Assembly: GCF_041381155.1 (NCBI RefSeq)
Contig: NC_091134.1
Location: forward strand, 61,182,902-61,246,901
DNA from: Argopecten irradians
Taxonomy: Eukaryota
Direction of reading: 5' to 3'
DNA: 64,000 nucleotides
The position numbers and the translations under genes are program-made. The notes below the pieces were generated by a model. The model did no database searches. It worked only from the letters and a program-made list of their open reading frames with translations, and was not told the origin of the DNA. Numbering within the stretch: the first letter of the stretch is position 1; each line of letters begins with the position of its first letter. Below, piece after piece: positions 12,037 through 53,153 of this stretch.

Positions 12037-12151
12037 GTAAGTTGTTTGTCTATGATTTCCTGTAAGCCTTTGGGAGTCAGAAGTTGACAACCCTTTAATA
12101 ACATGTAACTGTCATATGTTATACAGTTCTATGTAAAACAAACTGGTTACT

Positions 12152-14688: not shown

Positions 14689-14790
14689 AGAATGAAGATG
14701 GACCTAAAAGGCTATGTTATAAAGCTTAGCAAAGAGTTCTGTATAGTGACTTCACTAACTAGCTTCATCGCAGTGGAAAAACGTGAAAAG
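14689..14790 (+). CDS. Gene A exon (RMKMDLKGYVIKLSKEFCIVTSLTSFIAVEKREK)
   Basis: Acceptor tttatttcag| and donor gaaaag|gtctga. TSFIAVE compares with SSFTAFIAI in VWA5A and ITIH. Confidence 0.7.
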
Positions 14791-15209: not shown

Positions 15210-15335
15210 GATGAAGAAATGACATGTGCTCCGGATATCTATGAACTCTTGGATGAAGTGCGAGAAAATGTTTGTTCATTCCTTCGCCTCGACATCACCC
15301 CAAATGATTTTGAAGCAGCTCTAGATTCTGATGAT
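15210..15335 (+). CDS. Gene A exon (DEEMTCAPDIYELLDEVRENVCSFLRLDITPNDFEAALDSDD)
   Basis: Acceptor ttaataatag| and donor gatgat|gtaagt. It is 126 nt and phase 0. There is no homology support beyond frame and splice sites. Confidence 0.5.
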
Positions 15336-15417: not shown

Positions 15418-16382
15418 TAGGGCTGAAACGATTAGTAATTTTTGTATTCAATTATTTGGTCTCATGTAATCGATTACTAATCGATTAATCGTTTGAATTG
15501 AAGGCAACTATATTGTTTCACTACTGACTACTGAAAACGTCCGCCATGTTTTGTTATCAACTAATAATAACACCTACCGTATAATATGACAGAGGACATG
15601 CCTTATATAATATAAGCCTACCAATATCCCAATGATATTTAAATCTCTGCAACAAATAAGAATAGATTTATTGACAAAACAAACGTATTTTATCCCAAAT
15701 AAGCTCTGAATTCCGTTCCTGTATTGTCTTCCGTAACATCGTTTAAATCAAGTCTGCTAACCCGCTGTTTTGACGTGACCTTCACACGTACGACTAATCA
15801 ACCAAATCTGGATCGCCACGGAGCAACATGACCAAATTTTCGTCAATGAACTTTTTTATTTCCGTGATCAAAAAAACAAAATAAATCAACAACTCTTATA
15901 TTCAATTAGAATATGAACAAAAACATTCTTTTTATATGATAAACACATGCAATAGTAAAATCTAAATGTTCAAGATTACTGCTCCTTCCGCTCCCGAGCG
16001 TCCCGGCGGCGATTAGGCCTCCGTGACGTAACAACATGGAGTCGATCGCTAGTGAAAATTGGCGAACAGCGTGTTGCAAGCTTTCTCATGACATCCACTT
16101 TTTCATTGATTAATGACTTTAACTTCCACAGAGACGTAATTTAACAAGTATTTCTCACATCATATATGCTTTGTTGAGTTCAAAACATGTACATAAAGAG
16201 ATGAAACTCCAGTCGGAATGGCTTACTCAGAAATCCATGATCTGTCAACGTGTTTAGTCAGCTTACAATGCACTGGCTATGCATGTTACGATTAACGATT
16301 AATAAAATCTTTAATCGATTATCAGCAATTAGCTTCATTAATCTAATCGCCTCCGATTATTCGACTAATCGTTTCAGCCCTA
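15418..16382. mobile_element. Non-autonomous hAT-superfamily DNA transposon (~965 bp). It has 18-bp perfect TIRs (TAGGGCTGAAACGATTAG) and an 8-bp target-site duplication ACTTCAGA (15410-15417 and 16383-16390).
   Basis: TIR and TSD read directly. An 8-bp TSD plus a TAGGG.. terminus is the hAT hallmark. There is no transposase ORF inside. Confidence 0.75.
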
Positions 16383-17194
16383 ACTTCAGACCATAGGCAC
16401 ATTTTTAGTAGGGGGGAGGAGGGCAGTATTCTTGAATCAACGATCCCCACCTGTCCGTAGAAAAAAATGTCCAGACACTTCCACCTTATTTATTGAATCA
16501 ATTTCAGTGAAACTTGGCAGCAACGCTGGCAGGGCCATGTGTAGATGTGTATGCAGGTTTTATCTTATAAAAAATTTGGTTGCCAAGGTAAACAGGTCAC
16601 TGTACACAGGTTTTATAATGTAGCCAATGACTAAGCTTGTTGTTAAATTTTGGATAATTTTCTTCAAACTTGGTGAATTGTTGTAACACATGGATATCTA
16701 TAATTTGACACACCACATGATTCCATAGCAGTTTTTATGGAAAAAAGATTGTACATAGATAATCTCATTTACTCTCTGATATCTTAAGCATGCACTATGA
16801 TTACCAGGTACCAGGTGAGCGATTTTATTGTGTTCATGAAACTTAACCCTGTTATCTGACGTAAATGACCATACAATGTAGTTTGTTTCTGCCGAATAAT
16901 TATGTAATGAGAGCAATATCTGACATTTAAATCAATTTGTAAGTTTTAATTGTAATATTAAATACTTCACAATTACTTAGTCGGTATATCCAAAGATGTA
17001 ATGTAAATAAAAAACAAAAAGAAAAAAAAACCTCTGAGCCTTGTGTTTCCGTAAGGTTGTCAGTTATACACATATTTCATAACTTAATATTAATGTCATA
17101 CAATTGAGACACAAAACCTTAATTAACCACTTTGTTGGAACTGTCCAAAAGTATATACTTTTCATAGACATACAGAATTCTGATTTATTCTCAG

Positions 17195-17274: not shown

Positions 17275-18512
17275 GGCTAAGATGTGATATTGTTTATGTA
17301 GACAGAAGATCAAGTAAATGAGGTAGAGGTGTGATATTGTTTATGTAGACAGAAGATCAAGTAAATGAGGTAGAGGTGTGATATTATTTATGTAGACAGA
17401 AGATCAGGTAAATGAGGAAGAGATGTGATATTGTTTATGTAGACAGAAGATCAGGTAAATGAGGCTGAGATGTGATATTGTTTATGTAGACAGAAGGTCA
17501 GGTAAATGAGGTAGAGATGTGATATTGTTTATGTAGACAGAAGATCAGGTAAATGGGGTAGAGATGTGATATTGTTTATGTAGACAGAAGATCAAGTAAA
17601 TGAGGTAGAGATGTGATATTGTTTATGTAGACAGAAGATCAGGTAAATGAGGTAGAGATGTGATATTGTTTATGTAGACAGAAGATCAGGTAAATGAGGT
17701 AGAGATGTGATATTATTTATGTAGACAGAAGATCAGGTTAATGAGGTAGAGATGTGATATTGTTTATGTAGACAGAAGTTTAGTAAAAATGGGTAGTGAT
17801 ATGATATTGTTTATGTAGACAGAAGATCAGGTAAATGAGGTAGAGATGTGATATTGTTTATGTAGACAGAAGATCAGGTTAATGAGGTAGAGATGTGATA
17901 TTGTTTATGTAGACAGAAGATCAGGTAAATGAGGCTGAGATGTGATATTGTTTATGTAGACAGAAGATCAGGTAAATGAGGAAGAGATGTGATATTGTTT
18001 ATGTAGACAGAAGATCAGGTAAATGAGGTAGAGATGTGATATTGTTTATGTAGACAGAAGACCAGGTTAATGAGGTAGAGATGTGATATTGTTTATGTAG
18101 ACAGAAGACCAGGTTAATGAGGTAGAGATGTGATATTGTTTATGTAGACAGAAGACCAGGTTAATGAGGTAGAGATGTGATATTGTTTATGTAGACATAA
18201 GATCAGGTAAATGAGTTAGAGATGTGATATTGTTTATGTAGACAGAAGATCAGGTAAATGAGGTAGATATGTGATATTGTTTATGTAGACAGAAGATCAG
18301 GTAAATGAGGTAGAGATGTGATATTGTTTATGTAGACAGAAGATCAAGTAAATGAGGTAGAGATGTGATATTGTTTATGTAGACAGAAGATCAGGTAAAT
18401 GAGGTAGAGATGTGATATTGTTTATGTAGACAGAAGATCAAGTAAATGAGGTAGAGATGTGATATTGTTTATGTAGACAGAAGATCAGGAAATGAGGTAG
18501 AGATGTGATATT
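17275..18512. repeat. 37-bp minisatellite (unit ~tgtgatattgtttatgtagacagaagatcaggtaaatgaggtagaga) x ~33, left block
   Basis: Direct reading. It sits in a gene A intron. Confidence 0.9.
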
Positions 18513-18514
18513 GT

Positions 18515-20370
18515 TTTTAGGTCATCTGACCCGAAGGGTCAGGATGACCTATAGTCATCATGTTTCATCCGTCATCGTCCGCCGTCCGCCGTCCGCCGTG
18601 CGTTAACTTTTCACATTTTGAACTTCTTCTCAAGTTCTACCAGTGCAATTTGGCTGAAACTTGCATGAAATGATCCTGACATGGTCCCGACAAAGTGTTG
18701 TTATTTTTCGGGTCGATCCGAAATCAAAGATGGCCGCCACAGCCGCCATCTTGAAAACACATTTTGAACTTCTTCTCAAGTTCTACCGGTGCGATTTGAC
18801 TGAAACTTGCATGAAATGATCCTGACATGGTCCCGACAAAGTGTTGTTAATTTTCAGGTCGATCCGAAATCCAAGATGGCCGCCACAGCCACCATCTTGA
18901 AAACACATTTTGAACTTCTTCTAAAGTTCTACTGGTGCGCTGAAACTTGCATGAAATGATCCTGACATGGTCCTGACAAAGTGTTGTTATTTTTCGGGTC
19001 GATCCGAAATCCAAGATGGCCGCCACAGTCGCCATCTTGAAAACACATTTTGAACTTCTTCTCAAGTTCTACTGGTGCGATTTGGCTGAAAATTGCATGA
19101 AATGATCCTGACATGGTCCTGACAAAGTGTTGTTATTTTTCGGGTCGATCCGAAATCCAAGATGGCAGCCACAGCCGCCATCTTGAAAACACATTTTGAA
19201 CTTCTTCTCAAGTTCTACTGGTGCGATTTGGCTGAAACTTGCATGAAATGATCCTGACATGGTCCCGACAAAGTGTTGTTATTTTTCGGGTCGATCCCAA
19301 ATCCAAGATGGCCGCCACAGCCGCCATCTTGAAAACACATTTTGAACTTCTCAAGTTCTACCGGTGCGATTTGGCTGAAACTTGCATGAAATGATCCTGA
19401 CATGGTCCCGACAAAGTGTTGTTATTTTTCGGGTCGATCCGAAATCCAAGATGGCCGCCACAGCCGCCATCTTTAAAACACATTTTGAACTTCTCAAGTT
19501 CTACCGGTGCGATTTGGCTGAAACTTGCATGAAATGATCCTGACATGGTCCCGACAAAGTGTTGTTATTTTTCGGGTCGATCCGAAATCCAAGATGGCCG
19601 CCACAGCCGCCATCTTGAAAACACATTTTGAACTTCTTCTCAAGTTCTACCGGTGCGATTTGACTGAAACTTGCATGAAATGATCCTGACATGGTCCAAA
19701 CAAAGTGTTGTTATTTTTCGGGTCGATCCGAAATCCAAGATGGCCGCCACAGCCGCCATCTTGAAAACACATTTTGAACTTCTTCTCAAGTTCTACTGGT
19801 GCGATTTGACTGAAACTTGCATGAAATGATCCTGGCATGGTCCCGACAAAGTGTTGTTATTTTTCGGGTCGATCCGAAATCCAAGATGGCCACCACAGCC
19901 GCCATCTTGAAAACACATTTTGAACTTCTTCTCAAGTTCTACCGGTGCGGTTTGACTGAAACTTGCATGAAATGATCCTGACATGGTCCTGACAAAGTGT
20001 TGTTATTTTTTAGGTTGATACGAAACCCAAGATGGCAGCCACAGCCGCCATCTTGAAAACATATTTCGAACTTCTTCTCAAGTTCTACCGGTGCGATTTG
20101 GCTGAAACTTGCATGAAATGATCCTGACATGGGCCCGACAAAGTATTGTTACATCTCTGGTTGATCACAAATCGAAGCTGGCTACCATGACACTCTATCT
20201 AATTAATTTCCTATATGTTAAGGCCCTTGGGCCTCTTGTTTGAAATAAAATTTGTTGAAAGAAATTGAAAATGATCCTGACATGGTCCTGACAAAGTGAC
20301 ACCATATATAATTAATTTTACTATTGCCAAGGTAGTCAGATGACCGTTAAGGCCCTTTGGGCCTCTTGTT
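18515..20370 (-). mobile_element. HINE-like element carrying satellite C, inserted inside the 37-bp minisatellite. On the + strand it reads, in order:
- TTTTAG + hairpin (ggtcatctgacccgaagggtcaggatgacc)
- (CCGT/CCGC)n
- ~146-bp satellite C x ~10.5 (18603-20150)
- duplicated tail ..gtcagatgaccgttaaggccctttgggcctcttgtt
   Basis: The minisatellite unit is split (..gatattgttt | element | gtagacataagatcagg..) and resumes in phase. The tail contains gtcagatgacc, which is complementary to the head stem ggtcatctgac (an asymmetric TIR). Confidence 0.65.
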
Positions 20371-22195
20371 GTAGACATAAGATCAGGTAAATGAGGAAGA
20401 GATGTGATATTATGAAGACAGAAGATCAGGTAAATGAGGAAGAGATGTGATATTGTTTATGTAGACAGAAGATCAGGTAAATGAGGTAGAGATGTGATAT
20501 TGTGTATGTAGACAGAAGATAAGGTAAATGAGGTAGAGATGTGATATTGTTTTTGTAGACAGAAGATAAGGTAAATGAGGAAGAGATGTGATATTGTTTT
20601 TGTAGACAGAAGATCAGGTAAATGGGGTAGAGATGTGATATTGTTTATGTAGACAGAAGATCAGGTAAATGAGGTAGAGGTGTGATATTGTTTATGTAGA
20701 CAGAAGATCAGGTAAATGAGGTAGAGATGTGATATTGTTTATGTAGACAGAAGATCAAGTAAATGAGGTAGAGGTGTGATATTGTTTATGTAGACAGAAG
20801 ATCAAGTAAATGAGGTAGAGATGTGATATTGTTTATGTAGACAGAAGATCAGGTAAATGAGGAAGAGATGTGATATTGTTTATGTAGACAGAAGATCAAG
20901 TAAATGAGGTAGAGGTGTGATATTGTTTATGTAGACAGAAGATCAAGTAAATGAGGTAGAGGTGTGATATTGTTTATGTAGACAGAAGATCAGGTTAATG
21001 AGGTAGAGATGTGATATTGTTTATGTAGACAGAAGACCAGGTTAATGAGGTAGAGATGTGATATTGTTTATGTAGATAGAAGATCAGGTAAATGAGGTAG
21101 AGATGTGATATTGTTTATGTAGACAGAAGATCAGGTTAATGAGGTAGAGATGTGATATTGTTTATGTAGACAGAAGGTCAGGTAAATGAGGTAGAGATGT
21201 GATATTGTTTATGTAGACAGAAGGTCAGGTAAATGAGGTAGAGATGTGATATTGTTTATGTAGACAGAAGGTCAGGTAAATGAGGTAGAGATGTGATATT
21301 GTTTATGTAGACAGAAGATCAGGTAAATGAGGTAGAGATGTGATATTGTTTATGTAGACAGAAGATCAGGTAAATGAGGTAGAGATGTGATATTGTTTAT
21401 GTAGACAGAAGACCAGGTAAATGAGGTAGAGATGTGATATTGTTTATGTAGACAGAAGATCAGGTTAATGAGGTAGAGATGTGATATTGTTTATGTAGAC
21501 AGAAGATCAGGTAAATGAGGTAGAGATGTGATATTGTTTATGTAGACAGAAGATCAAGTAAATGAGGTTGAGATGTGATATTGTTTATGTAGACAGAAGA
21601 TCAGGTAAATGAGGTAGAGATGTGATATTGTTTATGTAGACAGAAGATCAGGTAAATGAGGTAGAGATGTGATATTGTTTATGTAGACAGAAGATCAGGT
21701 AAATGAGGTTGAGATGTGATATTGTTTATGTAGACAGAAGATCAGGTAAATGAGGAAGAGATGTGATATTGTTTATGTAGACAGAAGATCAGGTTAATGA
21801 GGTAGAGATGTATATGTTTATGTAGACAGAAGATCATAATGAGGTGTGTGATATGTTATGTAGACAGAAGATCAGGTAAATGAGGTAGAGATGTGATATT
21901 GTTTATGTAGACAGAAGATCAGGTAAATGAGGTAGAGATGTGATATTGTTTATGTAGACAGAAGATCAGGTAAATGAGGTAGAGATGTGATATTGTTTAT
22001 GTAGACAGAAGATCAGGTAAATGAGGTAGAGATGTGATATTGTTTATGTAGATAGAAGATCAGGTAAATGAGGTAGAGATGTGATATTGTTTATATAGAC
22101 AGAAGGTAAGGTAAATGAGGTAGAGATGTGATATTGTTTATGTAGATAGAAGATCAGGTAAATGAGGTTGAGATGTGATATTGTGTAGACAAAAG
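20371..22195. repeat. 37-bp minisatellite, right block x ~49
   Basis: Same unit as the block at 17275-18512. Confidence 0.9.
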
Positions 22196-22610
22196 ATAAG
22201 GTAAATAGAGGTCAATCATTTAAATCGATGCATGTCATAATATTCTTCATGGATTGTAACCAAATTTGGCCAGAAACATCCTCTAAGAGTTTGTATAGTT
22301 ATTGGCTCTGACCCCCTGGGGCAGGAGGGGCGAGGTTTAATAGGAGAAATAGAGGTAATTCCTTTAAATCGCTACTAGTCATAGAGTTCTGCATTAAATT
22401 TGGCTAGAAACATCTTTTGAGGAAGGGGAACAGACTGTTTATAAATTTTGGCTGTAAAGCAGAATAAGTGGAGCCTAATGGGGAAATTAGTAAATATCTA
22501 AATTTACTTCAGAAAAGAAACAATGAACCTGTAATCAGAACCTTACTTGGCATTACAAACCAGGTGAGCGATACAGGCCCTCTTGGCCTCTTGTTTAGAT
22601 GATTTCAATA
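22196..22610 (-). mobile_element. Headless fragment of a satellite-D element: ~1.7 monomers plus tail (..accaggtgagcgatacaggccctcttggcctcttgttt)
   Basis: It matches the 31054-33057 element at the monomer and tail. Confidence 0.55.
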
Positions 22611-27581: not shown

Positions 27582-29389
27582 GTAGGTAAAGTATTCTGGG
27601 AATGTGTATATATTATTTGTTAGCGGAAACTAATAGGATTACGCCTCATTAAGTAGAGCTTAATATTTTACTTAAAGACCTAATATGATACAAAGTATTT
27701 TTTTGCTGACATGATTAAACATTTTACTATAAATTCAATGTAATTTAAACTTTCAGGTAGCTCTAAAAGTTTCATGCATGATATGGTCCTGCTGATGTTA
27801 AGTTAAAGAAGTTTTATTGAATATTAAAATTGTTATGAACAAGGTCAATCATTTTGATAAATTGTGGAAGAAAGCAGAGTGAGGAGTTTGGAGGTTTCGT
27901 TAGCCTGCCATACCCCTTTCTAACTTATATAACCATAGTAATATGGCTTTTACAAAGAAAGTTGAGATCTATATCTAGCTCACCTGATCGGAAGGGCCAG
28001 ATAGTTGCCATGAAATATCATCTATCCCTCTGTCTATTAATTTTTCCTTTGCTGCTAGATCTGCATAGATTGTAACCAAAGGAGGGGTATCACTTTGGGC
28101 TGTTTTACGGCCACTCAGTCATAAGCAAATTATTTTGCATGAAGATACATTAGGGTCAGCTGCATATTGTATGCTATTCAGAATATCCATGTTTTTCTAT
28201 GCTCATGATAATTTCAGAGGTCAAAGATCAAACGGTGGAAATTCACATTTTCATTGTTTAAGTCCTAATTAATTAAATATTAGAATAGAGATAAACTTTT
28301 TTGCAGATTTTGCATGTAAATATTGGGTTTGTAAAGTTCAGTTCAGAAAACTGATGAAAAGTTCAAAAAGTAGGTCACAGTGACCTAGTTAAGCATTTAT
28401 TCTATTTAAGCATTAAAAACTTTAATATTTTTGCTGAAAACTAAGATTTTTTCACCGATTTGATTGCTTGAAATTGATGTTTAGTACTGCATAAGGATCT
28501 TGACTTGACCTGTTTAAGATGATTACATCCTAGGGTCACATTGGTTAGGTCAGGTGCATAAATTAGGTCATATTCAATGAATGGTATCATCTATCCACTA
28601 AGCATATGCTGTTTTCCAATGTTTAAAACATGATTTGAAATTATTTAGACTTGTTTTATGAGCTTAATTTCAAGCAACGCATTGACTGTGGTAGGATGTT
28701 AGAATTATGCCTTCTGTCCCACTGCATGATCGTGACAGGCGACTAAATTTGGAATCTTAATTTCACGGTTACTGAGATGAAAATATTATAATTTTTCAAC
28801 CATTTCAAAGCTTTAGAGTAATGTTTAGCACTTGATTTGTATTTTGTCAGATCTACAATAGATTATTACATCCTAATATCACATTTGCTGGGTCACATGT
28901 ATAAATGTTATAAGTACAGGTTATGTACAAAAACATCCTTCAGGCCTAGGCAAACAGAAATTGTATAAATCTTGGTTCTGACCTCCCCCTGGGCCAAATA
29001 TGGGGAAGCTGAGATAAGATAATTCCTCTAAATTGCTACAGTAACTATAGTCTTAAGGTTCTTCATCCAATGGATTTTAACTGAATTTGATTAGAAATGT
29101 TCTTTGGGAAAGGTGAACAGATTTTGTATAAATGGCTGGGTGGGACTCATTAGGGGGAAATAGAAATAATTCTTTTATATGATAACCTTGAGTAAATAAA
29201 CATAACCTGTACCAGTGGAAATCTTACAAAATGACATAAATGAAATATCCCTGTCTATTTGACAGACCCATGTTTGACTCCTTTTCTCCCATATTTGAAC
29301 AACAATTGATGAAATTCCAGTCATTAAATTGTGCCATATCCTAGAAATGTCATAATAATAATGATAACATTGTTGACAATGGGCGACAC

Positions 29390-30957
29390 ATATATTGATG
29401 ATGTTATGCTTTTGTCTTAAGTATGGAGCCATCCTTTATGAAGTCACAGTGGCATATGTGAGTAAAGCCAGTCTGCCATATGGCAGTCATTGCTTTATGT
29501 CAATCTGGCAAAATTTCCAACTATGCAGTCAATGATGTCCCTAAGCATCATTATAGAATCTCGCCATGTTTTATTTTGAAATCCTTGTTGACCTTGTTTT
29601 GATAATAAATAATGTAATTAAAGACTTCTTTGCTTGCAAATAATTGGAGCATTCAGAATTTAAAAAAGTAGTTGTTGTAAAAATTCCAGTTACCTCTGTT
29701 TGTTACATTTTTGTATATCACCACATTGAATGTTTACTTTTTATCATCAGTAGAGTGTCAGAAGGGGAGTCAATACCTTCATCTTTACTGGTGACGGAAA
29801 AAATGGTGAGTTTACACAGATAAGCATTCCAGATTCATATTAATCCACCGGCATGCTGGAATGACTAGATCACTAAATAAAGTATTTCAGTGAAAGTTAC
29901 TCTGTGTTCTATTTTGTCTTTGTATGTAACAGTTATCTATCCTTGAGTTATCTATTTGGCCCACTTCATTTAAAATGCCAGGTGGAGTCAGTCATGTGGC
30001 TGGCTTATAAAAGGCTTGTGTCAATAAAATTCTGCCAGTAAGCTAATTAAATCCAAATTTGTATTTAGAAAATGTGATGTTTTCCCAGATAATTACGGTA
30101 ATATTTATTCCTGACTGGCATGGTAAGTGTGTTTTTAGCTCACCTGGCCTGAAGGGCCGGTGAGCTTATATATATTGATGATGTTTGCTTTTGTCTTAAG
30201 TATGGAGCCATCCTTTATGAAGTCACAGTGGCATATGTGAGTAAAGCCAGTCTGCCATATGGCAGTCATTGCTTTATGTCAATCTGGCAAAATTTCCAAC
30301 TATGCAGTCAATGATGTCCCTAAGCATCATTATAGAATCTCGCCATGTTTTATTTTGAAATCCTTGTTGACCTTGTTTTGATAATAAATAATGTAATTAA
30401 AGACTTCTTTGCTTGCAAATAATTGGAGCATTCAGAATTTAAAAAAGTAGTTGTTGTAAAAATTCCAGTTACCTCTGTTTGTTACATTTTTGTATATCAC
30501 CACATTGAATGTTTACTTTTTATCATCAGTAGAGTGTCAGAAGGGGAGTCAATACCTTCATCTTTACTGGTGACGGAAAAAAATGGTGAGTTTACACAGA
30601 TAAGCATTCCAGATTCCAGATTCATATTAATCCACCGGCATGCTGGAATGACTAGATCACTAAATAAAGTATTTCAGTGAAAGTTACTCTGTGTTCTATT
30701 TTGTCTTTGTATGTAACAGTTATCTATCCTTGAGTTATCTATTTGGCCCACTTCATTTAAAATGCCAGGTGGAGTCAGTCATGTGGCTGGCTTATAAAAG
30801 GCTTGTGTCAATAAAATTCTGCCAGTAAGCTAATTAAATCCAAATTTGTATTTAGAAAATGTGATGTTTTCCCAGATAATTACGGTAATATTTATTCCTG
30901 ACTGGCATGGTAAGTGTGTTTTTAGCTCACCTGGCCTGAAGGGCCGGTGAGCTTATG
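29390..30957. repeat. Tandem duplication of a ~780-bp unit (29390-30169 and 30170-30957). Each copy ends with the hairpin tttttagctcacctggcctgaagggccggtgagcttat.
   Basis: The two copies are >98% identical by eye. Indels include ttatgc/tttgc and A6/A7. Confidence 0.85.
29750..29804 (+). CDS. Gene A candidate exon (-S RVSEGESIPSSLLVTEKM), in copy 1 of a 780-bp tandem duplication. The paralogous copy at 30530-30585 has an extra A that breaks the frame.
   Basis: Acceptor tttttatcatcag| and donor aaaatg|gtgagt. Only copy 1 keeps the phase chain intact. Confidence 0.35.
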
Positions 30958-33057
30958 TCATGGCGCGGCGTCCGTCGTCGTCCGTGCCGTCCGTCCGTCC
31001 GTCCGTCCGTCCGTCCGTCGTCCGTCCGTCCGTCCGTCGTCCGTCCGTCCGTCAACATTTCCTTTAAATCGCTACTAGTCATAGAGTTCTGCATGGATTG
31101 TAACCAAATTTGGCCACAAACATCCTTGGGGGAGGGGGAACAGAACTTGTATAAATTTTGGCTCTGTCCCCCCCGGGGCAGGAGGGGCGGGGCCCAATAG
31201 GGGAAATAGAGGTAAATCCTATAAATCGCTACTTGTCCTAGAGTTCTGCATGGATTGTAATCAAATTTGACCACAAACATCCTTGGGGGAGGGGGAACAG
31301 AACTTGTATAAATTTTGGCTCTGGTCCCTCAGGGGCAGGAGGGGCGGGGCCCAATAGGGGAAATAGAGGTAAATCCTATAAATCGCTACTTGTCCTAGAG
31401 TTCTGCATGGATTGTAACCAAATTTGACCACAAACATCCTTGGGGGAGCAGAAACAGAACTTGTATATAAATTTTGGCTCTGGTCCCCCAGGGGCAGGAG
31501 GGGCGGGGCCCAATAGGGGAAATAAAGGTAAATCCTTTATATCGCTACTTGTAATAGAGTTCTACATGAATTGTAACCAAATTCGGCCACAAACATCCTT
31601 GGGGGAAGGGGAACAGAACTTGTGTAAATTTTGACTCTGGTCCCCCGGGGGCAGGAGGGGCGGGGCCCAATAGGGGAAATAGAGGTAAATCCTTTAAATC
31701 GCTACTAGTCATTGAGTTCTGAATGGAATGTAACCAAATTTGGCCACAAACATCCTTGGGGGAAGGGGAACAGACCTTGTATAAATTTTGGCTCTGACCC
31801 CCGGGGGCAGGAGGGGCGGGGCCCAATAGGGGAAATAGAGGTAAATCCTTTAAATCTCTACTAGTCATAGAGCTCTACATGAATTGTAACCAAATTTGGC
31901 CACAAACATCCTTGGGGGAAGGGGAACAGAACTTGTATAAATTTTGGTTCTGATCCCCCAGGGGCAGGAGGGGCGGGGCCCAATAGGGGAAATAGAGGTA
32001 AATCCTTTATATCGCTACTTGTCATAGAGTTCTGAATGGAATGTAACCAAATTTGGCCATAAACATCCTTATGGGAAGGGGAAGAGAACTTGTATAAATT
32101 TTGGCTCTAGTCCCCCGGGGGCAGGAGGGGCGGGGCCCAATAGGGGAAATAGAGGTAAATCCTTTAAATCGCTACTAGTCATTGAGTTCTGAATGGAATG
32201 TAACCAAAATTTGGCCACAAACATCCTTTGGGGAAGGGGAACAGAACTTGTATAGATTTTGGCTCTGACCCCCCCGGGGGCAGGAGGGGCGGGGCCCAAT
32301 AGGGGAAATAGAGGTAAATCCTTTATATCGCTACTTGTCATAGAGTTCTGAATGGAATGTAACCAAATTTGGCCATAAACATCCTTTGGGGAAGGGGAAG
32401 AGAACTTGTATAAATTTTGGCTCTAGTCCCCCGGGGGCAGGAGGGGCGGGGCCCAATAGGGGTAATAGAGGTAAATCCTTTAAATCGCTACTAGTCATTG
32501 AGTTCTGAATGGAATGTAACCAAAATTTGCCACAAGCATCCTTTGGGGAAGGGGAACAGAACTTGTATAGATTTTGGCTCTGACCCCCCCGGGGGCAGGA
32601 GGGGCGGGGCCCAATAGGGGAAATAGAGGTAAATCCTTTAAATTGCTACTAGTCATAGAGTTCTGCATGGATTGAAACCAAATTTGGCCACAAACATCCT
32701 TGGGGGAAGGGGAACAGAACTTGTATAAATTTTGACTCTGGCCCCCCGAGGACAGGACGGGTGGGGCCCAATAGGGGAAATAGAGGTAAATCCTATAAAT
32801 CACTTCTTGTCCTAGAGTTTTTCTTGGATTGTGACCAAATTTAGCCATAAACATCCTTGGGGGAAGGGGAACAGAACTTGTATAAATTTTGGCTCTGACC
32901 CCCTGGGGGCGGGAGGGGTGGGGCCCAATAGGGGATTTAGAGGTTAATATTAAAATTCCTTCAGAAAAGAAACAATGAACCTGTATTCAGAACATTACTT
33001 GGCATTACAAACCAGGTGAGCGATACAGGCCCTCTGGGCCTCTTGTTTACAAACAAC
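30919..33057 (-). mobile_element. HINE-like element carrying satellite D. On the + strand it reads, in order:
- hairpin agctcacctggcctgaagggccggtgagct
- (CGTC/CCGT)n microsatellite 30958-31053
- ~157-bp satellite D x12 (31054-32935)
- tail ..ttcagaaaagaaacaatgaacctgta..accaggtgagcgatacaggccctctgggcctcttgtttac
   Basis: Direct reading. The satellite-D monomer contains the GC-box-like aggaggggcggggccc. Confidence 0.6.
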
Positions 33058-35742: not shown

Positions 35743-35846
35743 TCTATGATGTCTGAAGAGGAGTCGGATGAAGAAGAGGAAATGGGGTTTGGACTCTTTG
35801 AGGATGATCATGCAGCTGACTTCATTGTGGAAAAGCAGATGAAACT
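35743..35846 (+). CDS. Gene A acidic exon (SMMSEEESDEEEEMGFGLFEDDHAADFIVEKQMKL-). If the weak donor ct|gtataa is not used, the frame reads through to a TAA at 35869-35871 with AATAAA at 35946-35951, giving an alternative terminal exon.
   Basis: Acceptor ctgttgcag|. The frame is continuous with the exon at 29750-29804. The ribosomal P-protein-like EESDEEEEMGFGLFEDD motif was read directly. Internal donor use gives a phase-2 end that matches the next exon exactly. Confidence 0.5.
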
Positions 35847-35945
35847 GTATAAACTACATCTTACATATTAATTATTTGTGTATCAAGCTAACTTATTGTG
35901 ATTAGTTTTGTTATGACAATCACCATTTAGAAAACATAAATTTTG

Positions 35946-35951
35946 AATAAA
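35946..35951 (+). promoter_or_regulatory. AATAAA polyadenylation signal, ~75 nt after the read-through stop of the acidic exon (possible short isoform of gene A)
   Basis: Hexamer read directly. Confidence 0.3.
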
Positions 35952-36497: not shown

Positions 36498-37920
36498 GAG
36501 TTCTGAAGAAGACTCGAAACAAGATCATCCAGTGACGCTACTATGTGCAGATTCTCTGCCTTCCTTATCAGAACGGTCTGCCTCACCTAAAACATCATTT
36601 TTACCCACTACAATAGAGGAGGACGTCTCAGAAGCTATTAGCTGTACCATTGCAAGGCCTGATAAGGTTGCCACATCGGTTTCCCCAAGGCCGTTAGGTG
36701 CAGGTCCACCCGAAGTCCCCCTATTTGACATGATGGATTTGAAATCCAGAGGCCCTCCAGATCATACTTCTGGTATGCTTAAAACCTATCGTCATCTAAG
36801 CCAATTTCATCCCATTGAATTGTCAGAAATACAACCTCCACCTGCCATGGCCTTTACACCTGGAGCAGCACCTTCCCATCAACAACAATCTGCAATGGCT
36901 GTTACACTGGGAGCTCCTCCACAAACACAGTCTGCCATGGCCTATACATCAGAAGTCCCTCTTCCTCTTCCACAACAAGCTGCTAATAGGTCAGCAATAA
37001 GTGCTCCATCAGCTAGGCCTCCTCCGCCTCCTCCGCCTCGTCAAATGCTTGACATGGCATTTACATTAAGTGGACCTCCTCCCCCACCAAGGGCTCCATC
37101 AGCTGGGCCTCCTCTGCCTCCTCAAATGCTTGACATGGCTTTTACATCAAGTGGACCTCCTCCCCCACCAAGGGCTCCATCAGCTAAACCTCCTCCGCCT
37201 CCTCCAATGCTTGGCAAGGATTTTACATCAAGTGGACCTCCTCGCCCACCAAGGGCTCCATCAGCTAGACCTCCTCTGCCTCCTCCAATGCTTGGCAAGG
37301 ATTTTACATCAAGTGGACCTCCTCGCCCACCAAGGGCTCCATCAGCTAAACCTCCTCCGCCTCCTCCAATGCTTGGCAAGGATTTTACATCAAGTGGACC
37401 TCCTCGCCCACCAAGGGCTCCATCAGCTAAACCTCCTCCGCCTCCTCCAATGCTTGGCAAGGATTTTACATCAAGTGGACCTCCTCGCCCACCAAGGGCT
37501 CCATCAGCTAGACCTCCTCTGCCTCCTCCAATGCTTGACAAGGCTTTTACATCAAGTGGACCACCTCCTCCACCTCCTGTATCTCTCATGGCTGTTACAT
37601 CAAGTAGACCTCCTTCCCGATCAAATTTTCGATTAGCTGGACCACCTCCACCTCCTCCAATGCCTTACAAGGCTTTTACATCAAGTGGATCTTCTTCCCC
37701 ACCAATGCCTCAAATTACATTTTGTAAAATGTCTGCAAAGATTCCTTCAAGTCATAAAAGTTACTCATCTGACGATGATGATGAGTATTACAGGGTGCAT
37801 TCTCTCAGTAAGCCTTCCAGACCTGATCCAATTCCAATGTCTTTGGATTATGACCTTGATGATGTACCAAAATATAAGGATGAAGGCAAAGATGGGGTTG
37901 TGCATTTTGCATGTTCACAG
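36498..37920 (+). CDS. Gene A large exon. It is proline-rich and low-complexity, with 8 tandem 23-aa repeats (FTSSGPPRPPRAPSAKPPPPPPMLGKD) encoded by 69-bp DNA repeats (about 36990-37560). It has an FH1-like polyproline character.
   Basis: A 470-aa ORF with acceptor gtttttttttacag| and donor tcacag|gtatgt. It starts with 1 nt completing a codon and ends in phase 0. Confidence 0.6.
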
Positions 37921-39754: not shown

Positions 39755-39865
39755 GTAAATAATTAAGCTTCAACACATCTTCTGGTTCTAAAGATGTGAT
39801 ACATTTTTCTCTGACTGTATTTATAACACCCTCTGTTGTAGGTTATCATTAGTATAAAGTCATAG

Positions 39866-42800
39866 GTAGGTATTGTTATACTGTCCTTGGTACATAGTCA
39901 TTGCTAGGTATTGTTATACTGTCCTTGGTACATAGTCATTGTTAGGTATTGTTATACTTGTCCATTGGTAATAGTCATTGTTAGGTATTTTTATACTGTC
40001 CTTGGTATATAGTCATTGTTAGGATTGTTATACTGTCCTTGGTACATAGTCATTGTTAGATATTGTTATACTATCCTTGGTATATAGTCATTGTTAGGTA
40101 TTGTTATACTGTCCTTGGTATATAGTCATTGTTAGGTATTGTTATACTGTCCTTGGTACATAGTCATTGTTAGGTATTGTTATACTGTCCTTGGTATATA
40201 GTCATTGTTAGGTATTGTTATACTATCCTTGGTATATAGTCATTGTTAGGTATTGTTATACTGTCCTTGGTATATAGTCATTGTTAGGTATTGTTATACT
40301 GTCCTTGGTATATAGTCATTGTTAGGTATTGTTATACTGTCCTTGGTATATAGTCATTGTTAGGTATTGTTATACTGTCCTTGGTATATAGTCATTGTTA
40401 GGTATTGTTATACTTTCCTTGGTATATAGTCATTGTTAGGTATTGTTATACTATCCTTGGTATATAGTCATTGTTAGGTATTGTTATACTGTCCTTGGTA
40501 TATAGTCATTGTTAGGTATTGTTATACTGTCCTTGGTATATAGTCATTGTTAGGTATTGTTATACTGTCCTTGGTATATAGTCATTGTTAGGTATTGTTA
40601 TACTGTCCTTGGTATATAGTCATTGTTAGGTATTGTTATACTGTCCTTGGTATATAGTCATTGTTAGGTATTGTTATACTGTCCTTGGTATATAGTCATT
40701 GTTAGGTATTGTTATACTGTCCTTGGTATATAGTCATTGTTAGGTATTGTTATACTATCCTTGGTATATAGTCATTGTTAGGTATTGTTATACTGTCCTT
40801 GGTATATAGTCATTGTTAGGTATTGTTATACTGTCCTTGGTATATAGTCATTGTTAGGTATTGTTTATCTGTCCTTGGACTATATAGTCATTGTTAGGTA
40901 TTGTTATACTGTCCTTGGTATAGTCATTGTTCATTGTTATACTTCCTGGTATAGTCATTGTTTATTGTTATACTGTCCTTGGTATATAGTCATAGTTAGG
41001 TATTGTTATACTGTCCTTGGTACATAGTCATTGTTAGGTATTGTATTGTACTGTCCTTGGTACATAGTCATTGTTAGTATTGGTATTGTTATACTGTCCT
41101 TGGTACATAGTCATTGTTAGGTATTGTTATACTGTCCTTGGTATATAGTCATTGTTAGGTATTGTTATACTGTCCTTGGTACATAGTCATTGTTAGGTAT
41201 TGTTATACTGTCCTTGGTACATTAGTCATTGTTAGGTATTGTTATACTGTCCTTGGTATATAGTCATTGTTAGGTATTGTTATTACTGTCCTTGGTACAT
41301 AGTCATTGTTAGGTATTGTTATACTGTCCTTGGTATATAGTCATTGTTAGGTATTGTTATACTGTCCTTGGTATATAGTCATTGTTAGGTATTGTTATAC
41401 TGTCCTTGGTATATAGTCATTGTTAGGTATTGTTATACTGTCCTTGGTACATAGTCATTGTTAGGTATTGTTATACTATCCTTGGTATATAGTCATTGTT
41501 AGGTATTGTTATACTGTCCTTGGTATATAGTCATTGTTAGGTATTGTTATACTGTCCTTGGTATATAGTCATTGTTAGGTATTGTTATACATCCTTGGTA
41601 TAGTCATTGTTAGGTATTGTCCTTTAGGTATTGTTATACTGTCCTTGGTATATAGTCATTGTTAGGTATTGTTATACTGTCCTTGGTATATAGTCATTGT
41701 TAGGTATTGTTATACTGTCCTTGGTATATAGTCATTGTTAGGTATTGTTATACTGTCCTTGGTATATAGTCATTGTTAGGTATTGTTATACTGTCCTTGG
41801 TATATAGTCATTGTTAGGTATTGTTATACTGTCCTTGGTATATAGTCATTGTTAGGTATTGTTATACTGTCCTTGGTATATAGTCATTGTTAGGTATTGT
41901 TATACTGTCCTTGGTACATTATCATTGTTAGGTATTGTTATACTGTCCTTGGTACATAGTCATTGTTAGGTATTGTTATACTGTCCTTGGTACATAGTCA
42001 TTGTTAGGTATTGTTATACTGTCCTTGGTATATAGTCATTGCTAGGTATTGTTATACTGTCCTTGGTACATAGTCATTGTTAGGTATTGTTATACTGTCC
42101 TTGGTATATAGTCATTGTTAGGTATTGTTATACTGTCCTTGGTATATAGTCATTGTTAGGTATTGTTATACTGTCCTTGGTATATAGTCATTGTTAGGTA
42201 TTGTTATACTGTCCTTGGTATATAGTCATTGTTAGGTATTGTTATACTATCCTTGGTATATAGTCATTGTTAGGTATTGTTATACTGTCCTTGGTACATA
42301 GTCATTGTTAGGTATTGTTATACTATCCTTGGTATATAGTCATTGCTAGGTATTGTTATACTATCCTTGGTATATAGTCATTGTTAGGTATTGTTATACT
42401 GTCCTTGGTATATAGTCATTGTTAGGTATTGTTATACTGTCCTTGGTATATAGTCATTGTTAGGTATTGTTATACTGTCCTTGGTATATAGTCATTGTTA
42501 GGTATTGTTTATACTATCCTTGGTATATAGTCATTGTTAGGTATTGTTATACTGTCCTTGGTATATAGTCATTGTTAGGTATTGTTATACTGTCCTTGGT
42601 ACATAGTCATTGTTAGGTATTGTTATACTGTCCTTGGTACATATAGCCATTGTTAGGTATTGTTATACTGTCCTTGGTATATAGTCATTGTTAGGTATTG
42701 TTATACTGTCCTTGGTATATAGTCATTGTTAGGTATTGTTATACTATCCTTGGTATATAGTCATTGTTAGGTATTGTTATACTGTCCTTGGTATATAGTC

Positions 42801-45800
42801 ATTGTTAGGTATTGTTATACTGTCCTTGGTATCATAGTCATTGTTAGGTATTGTTATACTGTCCTTGGTATATAGTCATTGTTAGGTATTGTTATACTGT
42901 CCTTGGTATATAGTCATTGTTAGGTATTGTTATACTGTCCTTGGTATATAGTCATTGTTAGGTATTGTTATACTGTCCTTGGTATATAGTCATTGTTAGG
43001 TATTGTTATACTGTCCTTGGTATATAGTCATTGTTAGGTATTGTTATACTGTCCTTGGTACATAGTCATTGTTAGGTATTGTTATACTGTCCTTGGTACA
43101 TAGTCATTGTTAGGTATTGTTATACTGTCCTTGGTACATAGTCATTGTTAGGTATTGTTATACTGTCCTTGGTACATAGTCATTGTAGGTAGGTACTTCC
43201 TTGGTATAGCATTGTTAGGTATTGTTATACTGTCCTTGGTACATAGTCATTGTTAGGTATTGTTATACTGTCCTTGGTACATAGTCATTGTTAGGTATTG
43301 TTATACTGTCCTTGGTATATAGTCATTGTTAGGTATTGTTATATACTGTCCTTGGTATATAGTCATTGTTAGGTATTGTTATACTGTCCTTGGTATATAG
43401 TCATTGTTAGGTATTGTTATACTGTCCCTTAGGTATTGGTCCTTGGTATATAGTCATTGTTAGGTATTGTTATACTGTCCTTGGTATATAGTCATTGTTA
43501 GGTATTGTTTATACTGTCCTTGGTACATAGTCATTGTTAGGTATTGTTATACTATCCTTGGTATATAGTCATTGTTAGGTATTGTTATACTGTCCTTGGT
43601 ATATAGTCATTGTTAGGTATTGTTATACTATCCTTGGTATATAGTCATTGTTAGGTATTGTTATACTGTCCTTGGTATATAGTCATTGTTAGGTATTGTT
43701 ATACTGTCCTTGGTACATAGTCATTGTTAGGTATTGTTATACTGTCCTTGGTATATAGTCATTGTTAGGTATTGTTATACTGTCCTTGGTATATAGTCAT
43801 TGTTAGGTATTGTTATACTGTCCTTGGTACATAGTCATTGTTAGGTATTGTTATACTGTCCTTGGTACATAGTCATTGTTAGGTATTGTTATACTGTCCT
43901 TGGTATATAGTCATTGTTAGGTATTGTTATACTATCCTTGGTATATAGTCATTGTTAGGTATTGTTATACTGTCCTTGGTACATAGTCATTGTTAGATAT
44001 TGTTATACTGTCCTTGGTACATAGTCATTGTTAGGTATTGTTATACTGTCCTTGGTATATAGTCATTGTTAGGTATTGTTATACTGTCCTTGGTACATAG
44101 TCATTGTTAGGTATTGTTATACTGTCCTTGGTACATAGTCATTGTTAGGTATTGTTATACTGTCCTTGGTATATAGTCATTGTTAGGTATTGTTATACTA
44201 TCCTTGGTATATAGTCCATGTTAGGTATTGTTATACTGTCCTTGGTATATAGTCATTGTTAGGTATTGTTATACTGTCCTTGGTATATAGTCATTGTTAG
44301 GTATTGTTATACTGTCCTTGGTATATAGTCATTGTTAGGTATTGTTATACTGTCCTTGGTATATAGTCATTGTTAGGTATTGTTATACTGTCCTTGGTAT
44401 ATAGTCATTGTTAGGTATTGTTATACTATCCTTGGTATATAGTCATTGTTAGGTATTGTTATACTGTCCTTGGTACATAGTCATTGCTAGGTATTGTTAT
44501 ACTGTCCTTGGTATATAGTCATTGTTAGGTATTGTTATACTGTCCTTGGTATATAGTCATTGTTAGGTATTGTTATACTGTCCTTGGTATATAGTCATTG
44601 TTAGGTATTGTTATACTATCCTTGGTACATAGTCATTGTTAGGTATTGTTATACTATCCTTGGTACATAGTCATTGTTAGGTATTGTTATACTGTCCTTG
44701 GTATATAGTCATTGTTAGGTATTGTTATACTGTCCTTGGTATATAGTCATTGTTAGGTATTGTTATACTGTCCTTGGTATATAGTCATTGTTAGGTATTG
44801 TTATACTGTCCTTGGTATATAGTCATTGTTAGGTATTGTTATACTGTCCTTGGTATATAGTCATTGTTAGGTATTGTTATACTGTCCTTGGTATATATAG
44901 TCATTGTTAGGTATTGTTATACTGTCCTTGGTATATAGTCATTGTTAGGTATTGTTATACTGTCCTTGGTACATAGTCATTGTTAGGTATTGTTATACTG
45001 TCCTTGGTACATAGTCATTGTTAGGTATTGTTATACTATCCTTGGTATATAGTATTGTACTATCCTTGGTATATAGTCATTGTTAGGTATTGTTATACTG
45101 TCCTTGGTATATAGTCATTGTTAGGTATTGTTATACTGTCCTTGGTATATAGTCATTGTTAGGTATTGTTATACTATCCTTGGTATATAGTCATTGTTAG
45201 GTATTGTTATACTGTCCTTGGTACATAGTCATTGTTAGGTATTGTTATACTATCCTTGGTAACATAGTCATTGTTAGGTATTGTTTATACTATCCTTGGT
45301 ATATAGTCATTGTTAGGTATTGTTATACTGTCCTTGGTATATAGTCATTGCTAGGTATTGTTATACTGTCCTTGGTATATAGTCATTGTTAGGTATTGTT
45401 ATACTGTCCTTGGTATATAGTCATTGTTAGGTATTGTTATACTGTCCTTGGTATATAGTCATTGTTAGGTATTGTTATACTGTCCTTGGTACATAGTCAT
45501 TGTTAGGTATTGTTATACTGTCCTTGGTATATAGTCATTGTTAGGTATTGTTATACTGTCCTTGGTACTTATAGTCATTGTTAGGTATTGTTATACTGTC
45601 CTTGGTATATAGTCATTGTTAGGTATTGTTATACTGTCCTTGGTACATAGTCATTGTTAGGTATTGTTATACTGTCCTTGGTATATAGTCATTGTTAGGT
45701 ATTGTTATACTGTCCTTGGTACATAGTCATTGTTAGGTATTGTTATACTATCCTTGGTATATAGTCATTGTTAGGTATTGTTATACTGTCCTTGGTATAT

Positions 45801-46878
45801 AGTCATTGTTAGGTATTGCTAGGTATTGTTATACTGTCCTTGGTACATAGTCATTGTTAGGTATTGTTATACTATCCTTGGTATATAGTCATTGTTAGGT
45901 ATTGTTATACTGTCCTTGGTATATAGTCATTGTTAGGTATTGTTATACTGTCCTTGGTATATAGTCATTGTTAGGTATTGTTATACTATCCTTGGTATAT
46001 AGTCATTGTTAGGTATTGTTATAGGTATTGTTATACTGTCCTTGGTATATAGTCATTGTTAGGTATTGTTATACTGTCCTTGGTATATAGTCATTGTTAG
46101 GTATTGTTATACTGTCCTTGGTACATAGTCATTGTTAGGTATTGTTATACTGTCCTTGGTATATAGTCATTGTTAGGTATTGTTATACTGTCCTTGGTAT
46201 ATAGTCATTGTTAGGTATTGTTATACTGTCCTTGGTATATAGTCATTGTTAGGTATTGTTATACTATCCTTGGTATATAGTCATTGTTAGGTATTGTTAT
46301 ACTGTCCTTGGTATATAGTCATTGTTAGGTATTGTTATACTGTCCTTGGTATATAGTCATTGTTAGGTATTGTTATACTGTCCTTGGTACATAGTCATTG
46401 TTAGGTATTGTTATACTGTCCTTGGTATATAGTCATTGTTAGGTATTGTTATACTGTCCTTGGTATATAGTCATTGTTAGGTATTGTTATACTGTCCTTG
46501 GTATATAGTCATTGTTAGGTATTGTTATACTGTCCTTGGTATATAGTCATTGTTAGGTATTGTTATACTGTCCTTGGTATATAGTCATTGTTAGGTATTG
46601 TTATACTGTCCTTGGTATATAGTCATTGTTAGGTATTGTTATACTGTCCTTGGTATATAGTCATTGTTAGGTATTGTTATACTATCCTTGGTATATAGTC
46701 ATTGTTAGGTATTGTTATACTGTCCTTGGTATATAGTCATTGTTAGTGTTAGGTATTGTTATACTGTCCTTGGTATATAGTCATTGTTAGGTATTGTTAT
46801 ACTGTCCTTGGTATATAGTCATTGTTAGGTATTGTTATACTGTCCTTGGTATATAGTCATTGTTAGGTATTGTTATAT
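39866..46878. repeat. 36-bp minisatellite (tatagtcattgttaggtattgttatactgtccttggta), ~7 kb and ~195 units, in a gene A intron
   Basis: Direct reading. Units carry occasional t/c (tatag/catag) and g/a variants. Confidence 0.95.
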
Positions 46879-52427: not shown

Positions 52428-52524
52428 TTAGGGGGTTGGACGAGGGATGAACTGGAGAAGGACCTGTATATTGATTTATCAGCCTGTATTGAGGTCCTAA
52501 ACACTGCAGGACTGAAGTCACTTG
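52428..52524 (+). CDS. Gene A exon (LGGWTRDELEKDLYIDLSACIEVLNTAGLKSL-)
   Basis: Acceptor gtattacag| and donor cacttg|gtaggt. It resembles the VWA5A C-terminal NGSWDLNEDLAKILG. Confidence 0.65.
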
Positions 52525-52857: not shown

Positions 52858-53153
52858 GTGTGAAGGTCGCTATGGAAATGGAGAATGTTTTAGTGACAGC
52901 ATTTGTTGTCATGTGGATACTCAAGACACTGGCACCAGAGTTATTCCCCTTGGATACCACCACCAGGAATTGGTCCCAAACTGCCGTGGAAATAGCAGCA
53001 GCCGTACTGGAGATATATGACCATGATCGGTCGTTGTTGGACAAGGCTGTTCAGTACTGTGACCAGTTAGAGAGGGCACACCCAGGTGTCGCCTATATAT
53101 TGGAACTGGGGTCTAACTGGTTCAATGTGGCTTCAAAAATATTAGGGTTATGA
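52858..53153 (+). CDS. Gene A terminal coding exon (-G VKVAMEMENVLVTAFVVMWILKTLAPELFPLDTTTRNWSQTAVEIAAAVLEIYDHDRSLLDKAVQYCDQLERAHPGVAYILELGSNWFNVASKILGL*)
   Basis: Acceptor tatttttttag| and stop TGA at 53151-53153. It resembles the VWA5A C-terminus ..SSGWATILAVIWLHS..ELLERKAVAWMRAH. Confidence 0.65.

Follow-up and report, generated by a model that had tools for sequence, protein, structure and literature searches.

The window analysed here is a 64,000-nt stretch of the genome of the scallop Argopecten irradians (RefSeq assembly GCF_041381155.1, NC_091134.1, positions 61,182,902 to 61,246,901 of the forward strand), and all positions below count from its first letter. Its + strand carries a multi-exon gene that RefSeq names "protein mono-ADP-ribosyltransferase PARP4-like", and one short exon of this gene encodes a peptide resembling the C-terminal tail found on the ribosome's P-stalk proteins, which is the subject of this report. 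The last exon (52860-53150), used as query in an exhaustive phmmer search, identified the RefSeq protein XP_069141939.1 (1280 aa, 99% identical), one of isoforms X1-X8. The motif had been pointed out in an earlier note written from the sequence alone; that observation is confirmed, while the interpretation given to it is partly supported.

The motif exon, as read from the sequence and its splice sites, is a 104-nt coding exon (35743-35846, + strand) that encodes SMMSEEESDEEEEMGFGLFEDDHAADFIVEKQMK plus the first two bases of a split Leu codon. It lies between an acceptor ttgcag/TCT and a donor AAA CT/gtataa (slashes mark exon borders), is entered in phase 0 and left in phase 2, and is in phase with its neighbours, the split codon CT/G being closed as Leu by the G at 36498. 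The exon starts with TCT ATG ATG TCT GAA GAG GAG TCG GAT GAA GAA GAG GAA, which includes an acidic serine cluster, and proceeds through a hydrophobic core and an acidic cap (ATG GGG TTT GGA CTC TTT GAG GAT GAT) to CAT GCA; we refer to the resulting peptide, SEEESDEEEEMGFGLFEDD, as the scallop motif. The P-stalk tail has a two-part anatomy, consisting of a charged cluster of phospho-serines followed by MGFGLFD (PMC11624264; PMC3280276), and the likeness extends over both recognised sub-motifs: a charged, two-serine cluster in CK2 context, and MGFGLFE at 35782-35802, which fits the P-stalk hydrophobic core MGFGLF[DE]. By sequence, the cluster SEEESDEEEE is the counterpart of the charged, phosphorylated part of the stalk tail, its CK2 sites being predicted ones. 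A degenerate DNA pattern for M-G-F-G-[LF]-F-[DE]3 matched once in the window as opposed to none of 100 shuffles, and gave 13 matches in 596 Gb of bacterial and archaeal genomes, none of them behind an acidic run; the composite motif (acidic run plus core) is absent from that prokaryotic DNA. Because of this single window match, the empty shuffles and the rarity in prokaryotes, the MGFGLF match is not a product of chance. Used as a homologue query, the motif exon with the start of the next exon retrieved nothing at E<=1e-3, and phmmer of the motif peptide against PDB sequences gave a spurious centrin match only, the acidic bias filter having probably dropped the P proteins. Looking up the 470-aa ORF (open reading frame) and isoform X1 as exact sequences yielded no record.

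All eight RefSeq isoforms read ...VTEKM/SMMSEEESDEEEEMGFGLFEDDHAADFIVEKQMK/LSSEEDSKQ..., spliced at the predicted sites, and the motif starts at about residue 404-417 of proteins of 1221-1281 aa. Since the exon is spliced in this way in every isoform, the weak-looking CT/gtataa donor is the one in use. Sequence and isoforms together thus establish a P-tail-like motif that is internal, in frame and within a vWA-containing gene; the earlier note had raised the eventuality that the exon might fall outside the transcripts of the vWA gene, and in the annotated models it is always included. The interval that had been given for the exon (35743-35871) stands up to 35846, the remainder (35847-35871) being intron. 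A short isoform ending just after the motif had also been proposed. The two signals invoked for it do exist, as the frame stops at 35869-35871 when the donor is ignored and AATAAA lies at 35946-35951, but none of the eight annotated isoforms ends there. As all of them splice at CT/gtataa, and as AATAAA is expected about once per 700 nt in a 68% A+T intron, the short isoform is unsupported. Skipping of the motif exon alone would bring GAG TTC TGA, and with it a stop, into frame in the next exon. The isoforms differ from one another elsewhere than in the motif exon, by NAGNAG-type shifts and two cassettes, a pattern of the kind that the NCBI pipeline yields from transcript evidence. The exon directly upstream of the motif exon is part of a local duplication of ~780 bp (29377-30825). 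Its duplicate at 30531-30581, with ...VTEKN where the exon itself has ...VTEKM, is a pseudo-copy unused in the RefSeq proteins.

The motif exon sits in a long linker between the vWA-containing core and a C-terminal helical domain (Table 1). Two intron-rich animal loci from ENA assemblies (L001 and L002) are collinear with those + strand exons that have homology support, and the exons of the vWA region are 50-62% identical to PARP4-like loci. An initial homologue search with a vWA exon had matched exon fragments only. A vWA domain is present in the concatenated exons (PF13768 VWA_3, 27.4 bits vs a cutoff of 27, E=4e-6), and alignments to L001, L002 and two further loci introduced below (L004 and L012) located the post-vWA HxLAAKxxI helix, the TSFxAV strand and the C-terminal helical domain. 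The latter is homologous to the MVP-interaction domain of PARP4 and to the C-terminal domain of VWA5A/Vwa1, with 76% identity to Ylistrum and 35% to the Haliotis PARP4-like protein. PF26156 (PARP4_MVP-ID) is a precomputed match on the Haliotis homologue, while the scan of the window domain came back empty with a Pfam copy seemingly without that model. The RefSeq protein has further exons between 15335 and 35743, and between the Pro-rich and the C-terminal-domain exons; the latter rule out a direct junction of these two, which we had considered. Within the Pro-rich exon there is an in-frame 81-bp tandem repeat (37027-37574, 6.8 copies, 94% matches) with the 27-aa unit PPPPPPMLGKDFTSSGPPRPPRAPSAK. 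This coding repeat looks like a recent in-frame expansion, the Ylistrum unit, PPPPPPKSAMAFTPA, being related but different.

The RefSeq models start at MGNTDLY, inside the vWA domain, in the vWA exon that follows the one at 276-362. A VIT domain would have its place before the first letter of the window, and BRCT and PARP domains are likewise outside it. In L002, matches to the PARP catalytic, VIT and VWA domains lie upstream and are collinear, and the orthologous locus of the scallop Ylistrum balloti is annotated as two adjacent genes (noted at L051:1-3047), the upstream one with BRCT, PARP, VIT and VWA, the downstream one with linker and C-terminal domain. Because the Ylistrum region consists of these two models, the window gene is, on sequence grounds, best described as the 3' part of a scallop PARP4 orthologue, and the label VWA5A-like that the earlier note had attached to it gives way to PARP4-like (vault PARP type), as in the RefSeq name. 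Annotation may have divided the scallop PARP4 models or cut them short at the N-terminus. PARP4 and VWA5A nevertheless belong to one VIT-vWA-CTD superfamily, named here after its VIT, vWA and C-terminal domains (PMC10539598).

Table 1. Features of the PARP4-like gene and its introns in the window (positions from the first letter of the window).
Feature	Position	Strand	Borders, reading or basis
Upstream vWA exon, LDEAKKILLLILHYLPKSWTFNFIIFGT	276-362	+	outside RefSeq protein models
vWA / hybrid / helical-bundle exons (approximate)	8545-8748, 11013-11102, 11866-12039, 13160-13261, 13778-13876, 14689-14790, 15210-15335	+	tblastx to PARP4-like loci L001 and L002, Pfam VWA_3, splice sites, RefSeq protein
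Exon directly upstream of motif exon, RVSEGESIPSSLLVTEKM	29752-29805	+	ends in phase 0; tblastn of isoform X1 on window, 100% identity
Acidic serine cluster SEEESDEEEE, two CK2-type sites (S-E-E-E, S-D-E-E)	35752-35781	+	direct reading
Hydrophobic core MGFGLF and acidic cap EDD	35782-35808	+	pattern match 35782-35807
Intron start; read-through tail YKLHLTY and stop, noncoding in any annotated isoform	35847-35871	+	sequence and isoforms
Large Pro-rich downstream exon, 1423 nt	36498-37920	+	acceptor ttttacag/G (36497/36498), end CAG/gtatgt
C-terminal helical domain exons, the second including the stop	52428-52524, 52858-53153	+	homology, RefSeq protein
Satellite arrays in introns	39852-46877, 17280-18516, 18612-20182, 20370-22212, 9382-10833, 31060-32948		

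A scan of metagenomes for the internal pattern returned 30 loci, 11 of which have an acidic run directly upstream; all but one of these 11 read MGFGLFDD[DE]. Two of them (L004 and L012) proved to be genes of the VIT-vWA-CTD superfamily. L004, which is fungal (protein P0014), is an intronless open reading frame (ORF) of 1006 aa comprising VIT, vWA, HQLAAKKAIQELEEG, KWTSFVAV, a low-complexity linker, the fungal counterpart of the scallop motif (...EEEEESSDDNMGFGLFDDD) and the C-terminal domain with LISLQTFSGAWEW, and L012 carries EEEEDDEDEDMGFGLFDDDD ~110 residues before its C-terminal domain. A profile search with L004, L012 and the scallop protein then collected 1770 proteins, and the counts that follow are from the best 120 of these 1770, fungal VIT-vWA proteins from Cladosporium, Zymoseptoria, Fusarium, Alternaria, Cercospora, rock-inhabiting Dothideomycetes and a lichen fungus. 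The strict motif is present in 35/120 and the relaxed motif in 64/120, the median distance to the C-terminus being 124 residues, and the cores of the relaxed set are MGFGLFD (24 proteins), MGYGLFD (10), MGYALFD (10), MGFALMD (5) and others. In an alignment of 93 sequences the seven motif columns have top-residue frequencies of 0.55-0.76, compared to 0.1-0.35 in most flanking linker columns; a few flanking columns (Pro, FG) exceed this range and the linker is otherwise unalignable. The Pfam family Ribosomal_60s (PF00428) scores 27.1 bits on P0014, just under its curated cutoff of 28.1, the end of the profile is also matched in L007 and L030, and the family is among the precomputed matches of three of the best 120. 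Because the combination of stalk-like motif and vWA protein is thus common in fungal VIT-vWA homologues, it is not unique to the scallop gene, which qualifies the novel domain combination envisaged in the earlier note; it does seem to be undescribed in the literature searched.

The AlphaFold model of one fungal homologue (P0029) provides a structural setting for the motif. A VIT-vWA core (17-694) and a helical C-terminal domain (829-921) are modelled confidently, whereas the predicted local distance difference test (pLDDT) score of the intervening linker is <50 for nearly all of 697-825, with the motif at 810-816 included, and is ~30 over 773-825. Such a low-scoring linker between confident domains is what one would see if the motif were linear and free within a disordered loop, as far as the model goes. 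A disordered loop before the C-terminal domain has been described, but not analysed, for this superfamily (PMC10539598). The composition of the scallop linker and its missing homology suggest that the scallop motif lies in disordered sequence too. As a side observation, Pfam Nucleoporin_FG (PF13634) scores in the motif linker of several fungal proteins (P0128, 42 bits, residues 761-848; P0062; P0072-74; others), so that the fungal linker combines FG-type repeats with the stalk-like motif.

Eukaryotic proteins unrelated to the superfamily carry the composite motif as well. An internal acidic run plus MGFGLFDDD is found in a seven-blade WD40 protein (L009, 33-2012), inserted in a DUF4139 protein (L026, 2536-3045) and in a 693-aa ORF with no Pfam match (L022, 2397-4475), and further carriers are L027 and L032 (ORFs from moss-associated metagenomes), L030, and L007, which is the same as L010. 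To the eye, the ORF preceding the WD40 protein of L009 resembles a WGR domain. As negative controls, prokaryotic and viral sequences were scanned as well and produced chance-like matches only, with the exception of one viral ORF: an A+T-rich viral contig (L049:2545-2570, identical to L015:832-857) contains a 146-aa ORF ending ...KDEDDYVMGFGFFEEDVSIFINVEV, the only viral or prokaryotic match with an acidic run before the core and possibly a viral stalk-tail-like motif.

We next consider whether the scallop exon could itself be a piece of a P-protein gene. Ribosomal_60s scores 12.3 bits on the motif, and only over profile positions 73-88 of 88, far from the cutoff for family membership, and yields no match at E<=1 on 223 aa of wider context. 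Because the match is limited to the last ~16 residues of a P protein, the exon is not a P-gene fragment. Nor did the flanking sequence reveal a hinge, a stop codon, a 3' untranslated region (3'UTR) or a poly(A) remnant beside the motif, nor any frame of the window another P-like sequence, and in 8/8 isoforms the motif is away from the extreme C-terminus, where P1 and P2 carry theirs. Ylistrum offers a probable counterpart of the exon. DNA alignment between Ylistrum and the window is confined to exons (73-82% identity), and at the Ylistrum locus an 83-nt exon (L051:22561-22643), running from phase 0 to phase 2 and hence of the same class as the 104-nt motif exon, encodes VLMNSGKTSESESDQDTYFDSTIKYQQ, an acidic serine cluster that ends in TYFD and has no MGFG. 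Of 2240 CAG sites compared with the motif-exon acceptor, the one in the acceptor region of this exon matches best, by a narrow 12 vs 11, and we regard the two exons as probably orthologous. Such an acidic exon of the same phase hints at a change inside an existing exon; most likely, to judge from these sequences, the motif was gained or lost within a pre-existing acidic exon, and capture from a P gene, as the earlier note had envisaged, is unlikely.

The remaining features of the window lie apart from the motif. Satellite DNA is dense in the introns of the PARP4-like gene: a 38-bp unit is repeated about 183 times (7 kb) and shows strong GC and AT skew, a 146-bp array is flanked by two 47-bp arrays, and there are also arrays of 155 bp and 157 bp. 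Downstream, exon-like ORFs at 61251-63895 appear to belong to a second + strand gene; judged by eye, they are similar to a repeat of cadherin/dystroglycan type, an EGF module (CASNPCLHNGECTDRTGGFFCNC) and sequence of the discoidin/F5-8 type C kind. On the - strand, a 233-aa ORF at 3596-4297 looks like the C-terminal part of the reverse transcriptase of a non-LTR retrotransposon. In the animal locus L002, the PARP4-like linker exon contains nine tandem copies of TPAPVTASLDFGMAQPLMDTAPMAQRRIQ, followed by a separate, very acidic ORF (13129-14757 and 16223-16459); the [DG]FGM...LMD core of this repeat faintly recalls GFGLFD.

What might such a motif do? The P-stalk tail is among the most conserved docking peptides in eukaryotes. 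Its readers are translational GTPases, Gcn2 and ribosome-inactivating proteins (RIPs) (PMC11624264; PMC2632931; PMC3280276), and RIPs such as ricin, trichosanthin and Shiga-like toxin dock on the stalk-tail peptide (PMC2632931; PMC3280276; PMC5086656). We see about even chances that the scallop peptide is a P-stalk-type short linear motif that recurs in the superfamily and docks stalk-tail readers in trans. The partners would be eEF2, eEF1A, eRF3, Gcn2 or ribosome-inactivating toxins, and docking would either anchor the partner on the VIT-vWA/PARP4 scaffold or set the protein in competition with the ribosome. Behind LF, acidic residues would take the place of the terminal Asp and carboxylate of the stalk tail, the interaction may be tuned by CK2-type phosphorylation, as on the stalk itself, and the motif would be evolutionarily labile within animals, with the full core in Argopecten and not in Ylistrum.

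Several observations weigh against such a docking motif. The P proteins have their copy at the extreme C-terminus whereas the scallop copy is internal, and that a copy so placed would bind is a prediction. About half of the fungal homologues are without a recognisable copy, the scallop motif is ~760 residues from the C-terminal domain as compared with 15-100 in fungi, and the eight RefSeq isoforms are computed models. The main argument against an essential role comes from other animals: no MGFGLF-like sequence was found in any frame of the 63-kb orthologous locus of Ylistrum balloti, no canonical motif along the whole PARP4-like linker of L002, and no copy in the 10 kb available upstream of the Haliotis asinina PARP4-like gene model (L052) or upstream of the C-terminal-domain ORF of the animal locus L054 (also 10 kb). 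Among animals the full motif is so far known only from Argopecten. Such a lack of conservation among the PARP4 genes of animals makes it harder to claim that the motif is essential, and given the Ylistrum locus a motif ancestral to the whole family is not a permissible inference for the animals. The earlier note had counted orthologues without the motif as evidence against its proposal, and Ylistrum, which is without the MGFGLF core, in part supplies it.

Among the other explanations, an acidic-hydrophobic motif that arose by convergence and is read by something else (the vWA MIDAS, the C-terminal domain, MVP or an E3 ligase), its likeness to the P tail having no functional meaning, is unlikely. 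It is true that vWA MIDAS sites bind acidic ligand residues, that Dictyostelium Vwa1 has been proposed to adopt an autoinhibited state in which its C-terminal domain folds onto the vWFA domain (PMC10539598), and that the scallop linker holds other acidic-hydrophobic patches (DIYELLDEV and EVYGLLSDLEEDVYDDMY). However, the scallop core is identical to the stalk tail at 6/7 positions (MGFGLFE vs MGFGLFD), the commonest fungal core is MGFGLFD itself and the variants are mostly ones seen in real P proteins, and the composite motif is also carried by unrelated proteins devoid of vWA. The AlphaFold model, moreover, docks the motif, with its pLDDT of about 30, on no domain; an intramolecular docking role was set aside as not supported by this model, which is weak evidence.

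It is distinctly unlikely, in our estimate, that the motif is a decoy or bait that captures or senses RIPs or pathogen effectors before they reach the ribosome. RIPs dock on exactly this stalk-tail peptide, free synthetic P-tail peptides bind and inhibit the ricin A chain (PMC6162817), the patchy gain and loss of the motif resembles conflict-driven evolution, and many fungal carriers are from plant-associated genera (Cladosporium, Zymoseptoria, Fusarium, Cercospora). Against this, the ribosomal stalks would vastly exceed in number a decoy present once per protein, and the present data fit ordinary docking of a partner equally well. A neutral accident, in which an acidic low-complexity exon drifted onto MGFGLF without any selected function, is very unlikely: the linker evolves very fast and is unalignable between the two scallops, and the core is missing from the nearest available relative, but the expected frequency of the motif is very low and it recurs within the same superfamily in fungi. 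Least probable of all, with only a slim chance, is an origin within the Argopecten lineage from a P-protein gene or a retrocopy of one, by exon capture or by a small templated insertion, for although the likeness spans ~17 residues including both serines and the core-less Ylistrum exon would permit a recent origin, the partial profile match, the clean flanks and the same-phase acidic exon of Ylistrum all speak against it.

A bolder form of the trans-docking proposal, which we put forward with considerable doubt, is that stalk-tail mimicry evolved repeatedly among the cytosolic VIT-vWA proteins, the PARP4 branch included, to draw readers off the ribosome, either to present eEF2 or another GTPase as substrate or target of an ADP-ribosyltransferase scaffold, or as a toxin-sensing decoy. 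The interest of the locus resides in recurrent mimicry across the VIT-vWA/PARP4 superfamily rather than in a single exon. What VWA5A/BCSC-1, Vwa1 and PARP4 do in the cell is poorly understood, and the motif suggests a testable idea, namely that proteins of the VWA5A/PARP4 type may bind translational GTPases, Gcn2 or ribosome-inactivating toxins. If true, repeated mimicry would provide a first molecular handle on VWA5A/PARP4 function and define a class of non-ribosomal P-stalk-mimic motifs, and the WD40, DUF4139 and other carriers hint that this linear-motif class may be wider and have been overlooked.

To our knowledge, the literature treats the P-stalk tail as a feature of ribosomal proteins only. 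In the literature searched, most subscription journals being outside its scope, nothing was found that ascribes a stalk-tail motif to VWA5A, to Vwa1, to PARP4 or to any other protein outside the ribosome; within it, GFGLFDD/ED/DE/EE occurred in full text for Arabidopsis P0 only, nothing linked PARP4 with the ribosomal stalk, and the Dictyostelium and BCSC-1 interactome papers did not mention the motif. Each component is already known, the exon and gene through their RefSeq annotation and likewise the P-stalk tail and the VIT-vWA-CTD family; what would be new is the docking peptide in an internal, non-ribosomal context.

Akin to the tails of uL10/P0, P1 and P2 (...EESEESDDDMGFGLFD; human ...KKEESEESDDDMGFGLFD), the scallop motif combines a two-serine acidic cluster in CK2 context with MGFGLF and an acidic residue, and the P tail resides in intrinsically disordered sequence, as the scallop motif probably does. 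Unlike in the P proteins, it is internal (~residue 417 of ~1280) to a non-ribosomal protein that has no P1/P2 dimerisation domain, uL10 domain or Ala/Lys-rich hinge, its core is followed by EDD and more protein, and one extra acidic residue separates serine and methionine. The fungal VIT-vWA-CTD proteins (P0014 and P0128 among them, variously named 'VWA5A', 'VIT domain-containing protein' or 'related to vault PARP') share with the scallop gene the superfamily, the domain order and the acidic run plus MGFGLFD-type core in a disordered linker upstream of the C-terminal helical domain; they differ in having no PARP context, in the D/G and Pro/Ala-rich sequence that follows the motif and in kingdom, and on present sequences we claim recurrence of the motif and not its common descent. 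Vertebrate PARP4 (vault PARP) and the scallop and abalone genes resemble one another in the vWA domain, the long linker with a Pro-rich exon and the MVP-interaction-type C-terminal domain, yet a P-like core as in Argopecten is lacking from the Ylistrum locus, the L002 linker and the available Haliotis and L054 flanks. Dictyostelium Vwa1 and human VWA5A (BCSC-1) are intracellular proteins of the order VIT, Hyb1a, vWFA, Hyb1b, helical bundle and VITpt2, with a long disordered loop and a C-terminal domain (PMC10539598); the motif would fall in the loop that was left unrendered in that study, which reports no acidic or P-like motif, and the window gene is on the PARP4 branch by name and by its Ylistrum orthologue. 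Lastly, the peptide mimics of the P stalk synthesized as inhibitors of ricin and Shiga toxin (PMC6162817; PMC11418909) likewise present the stalk tail off the ribosome, but whereas these reader-binding mimics are artificial and C-terminally free, the scallop copy is natural and internal.

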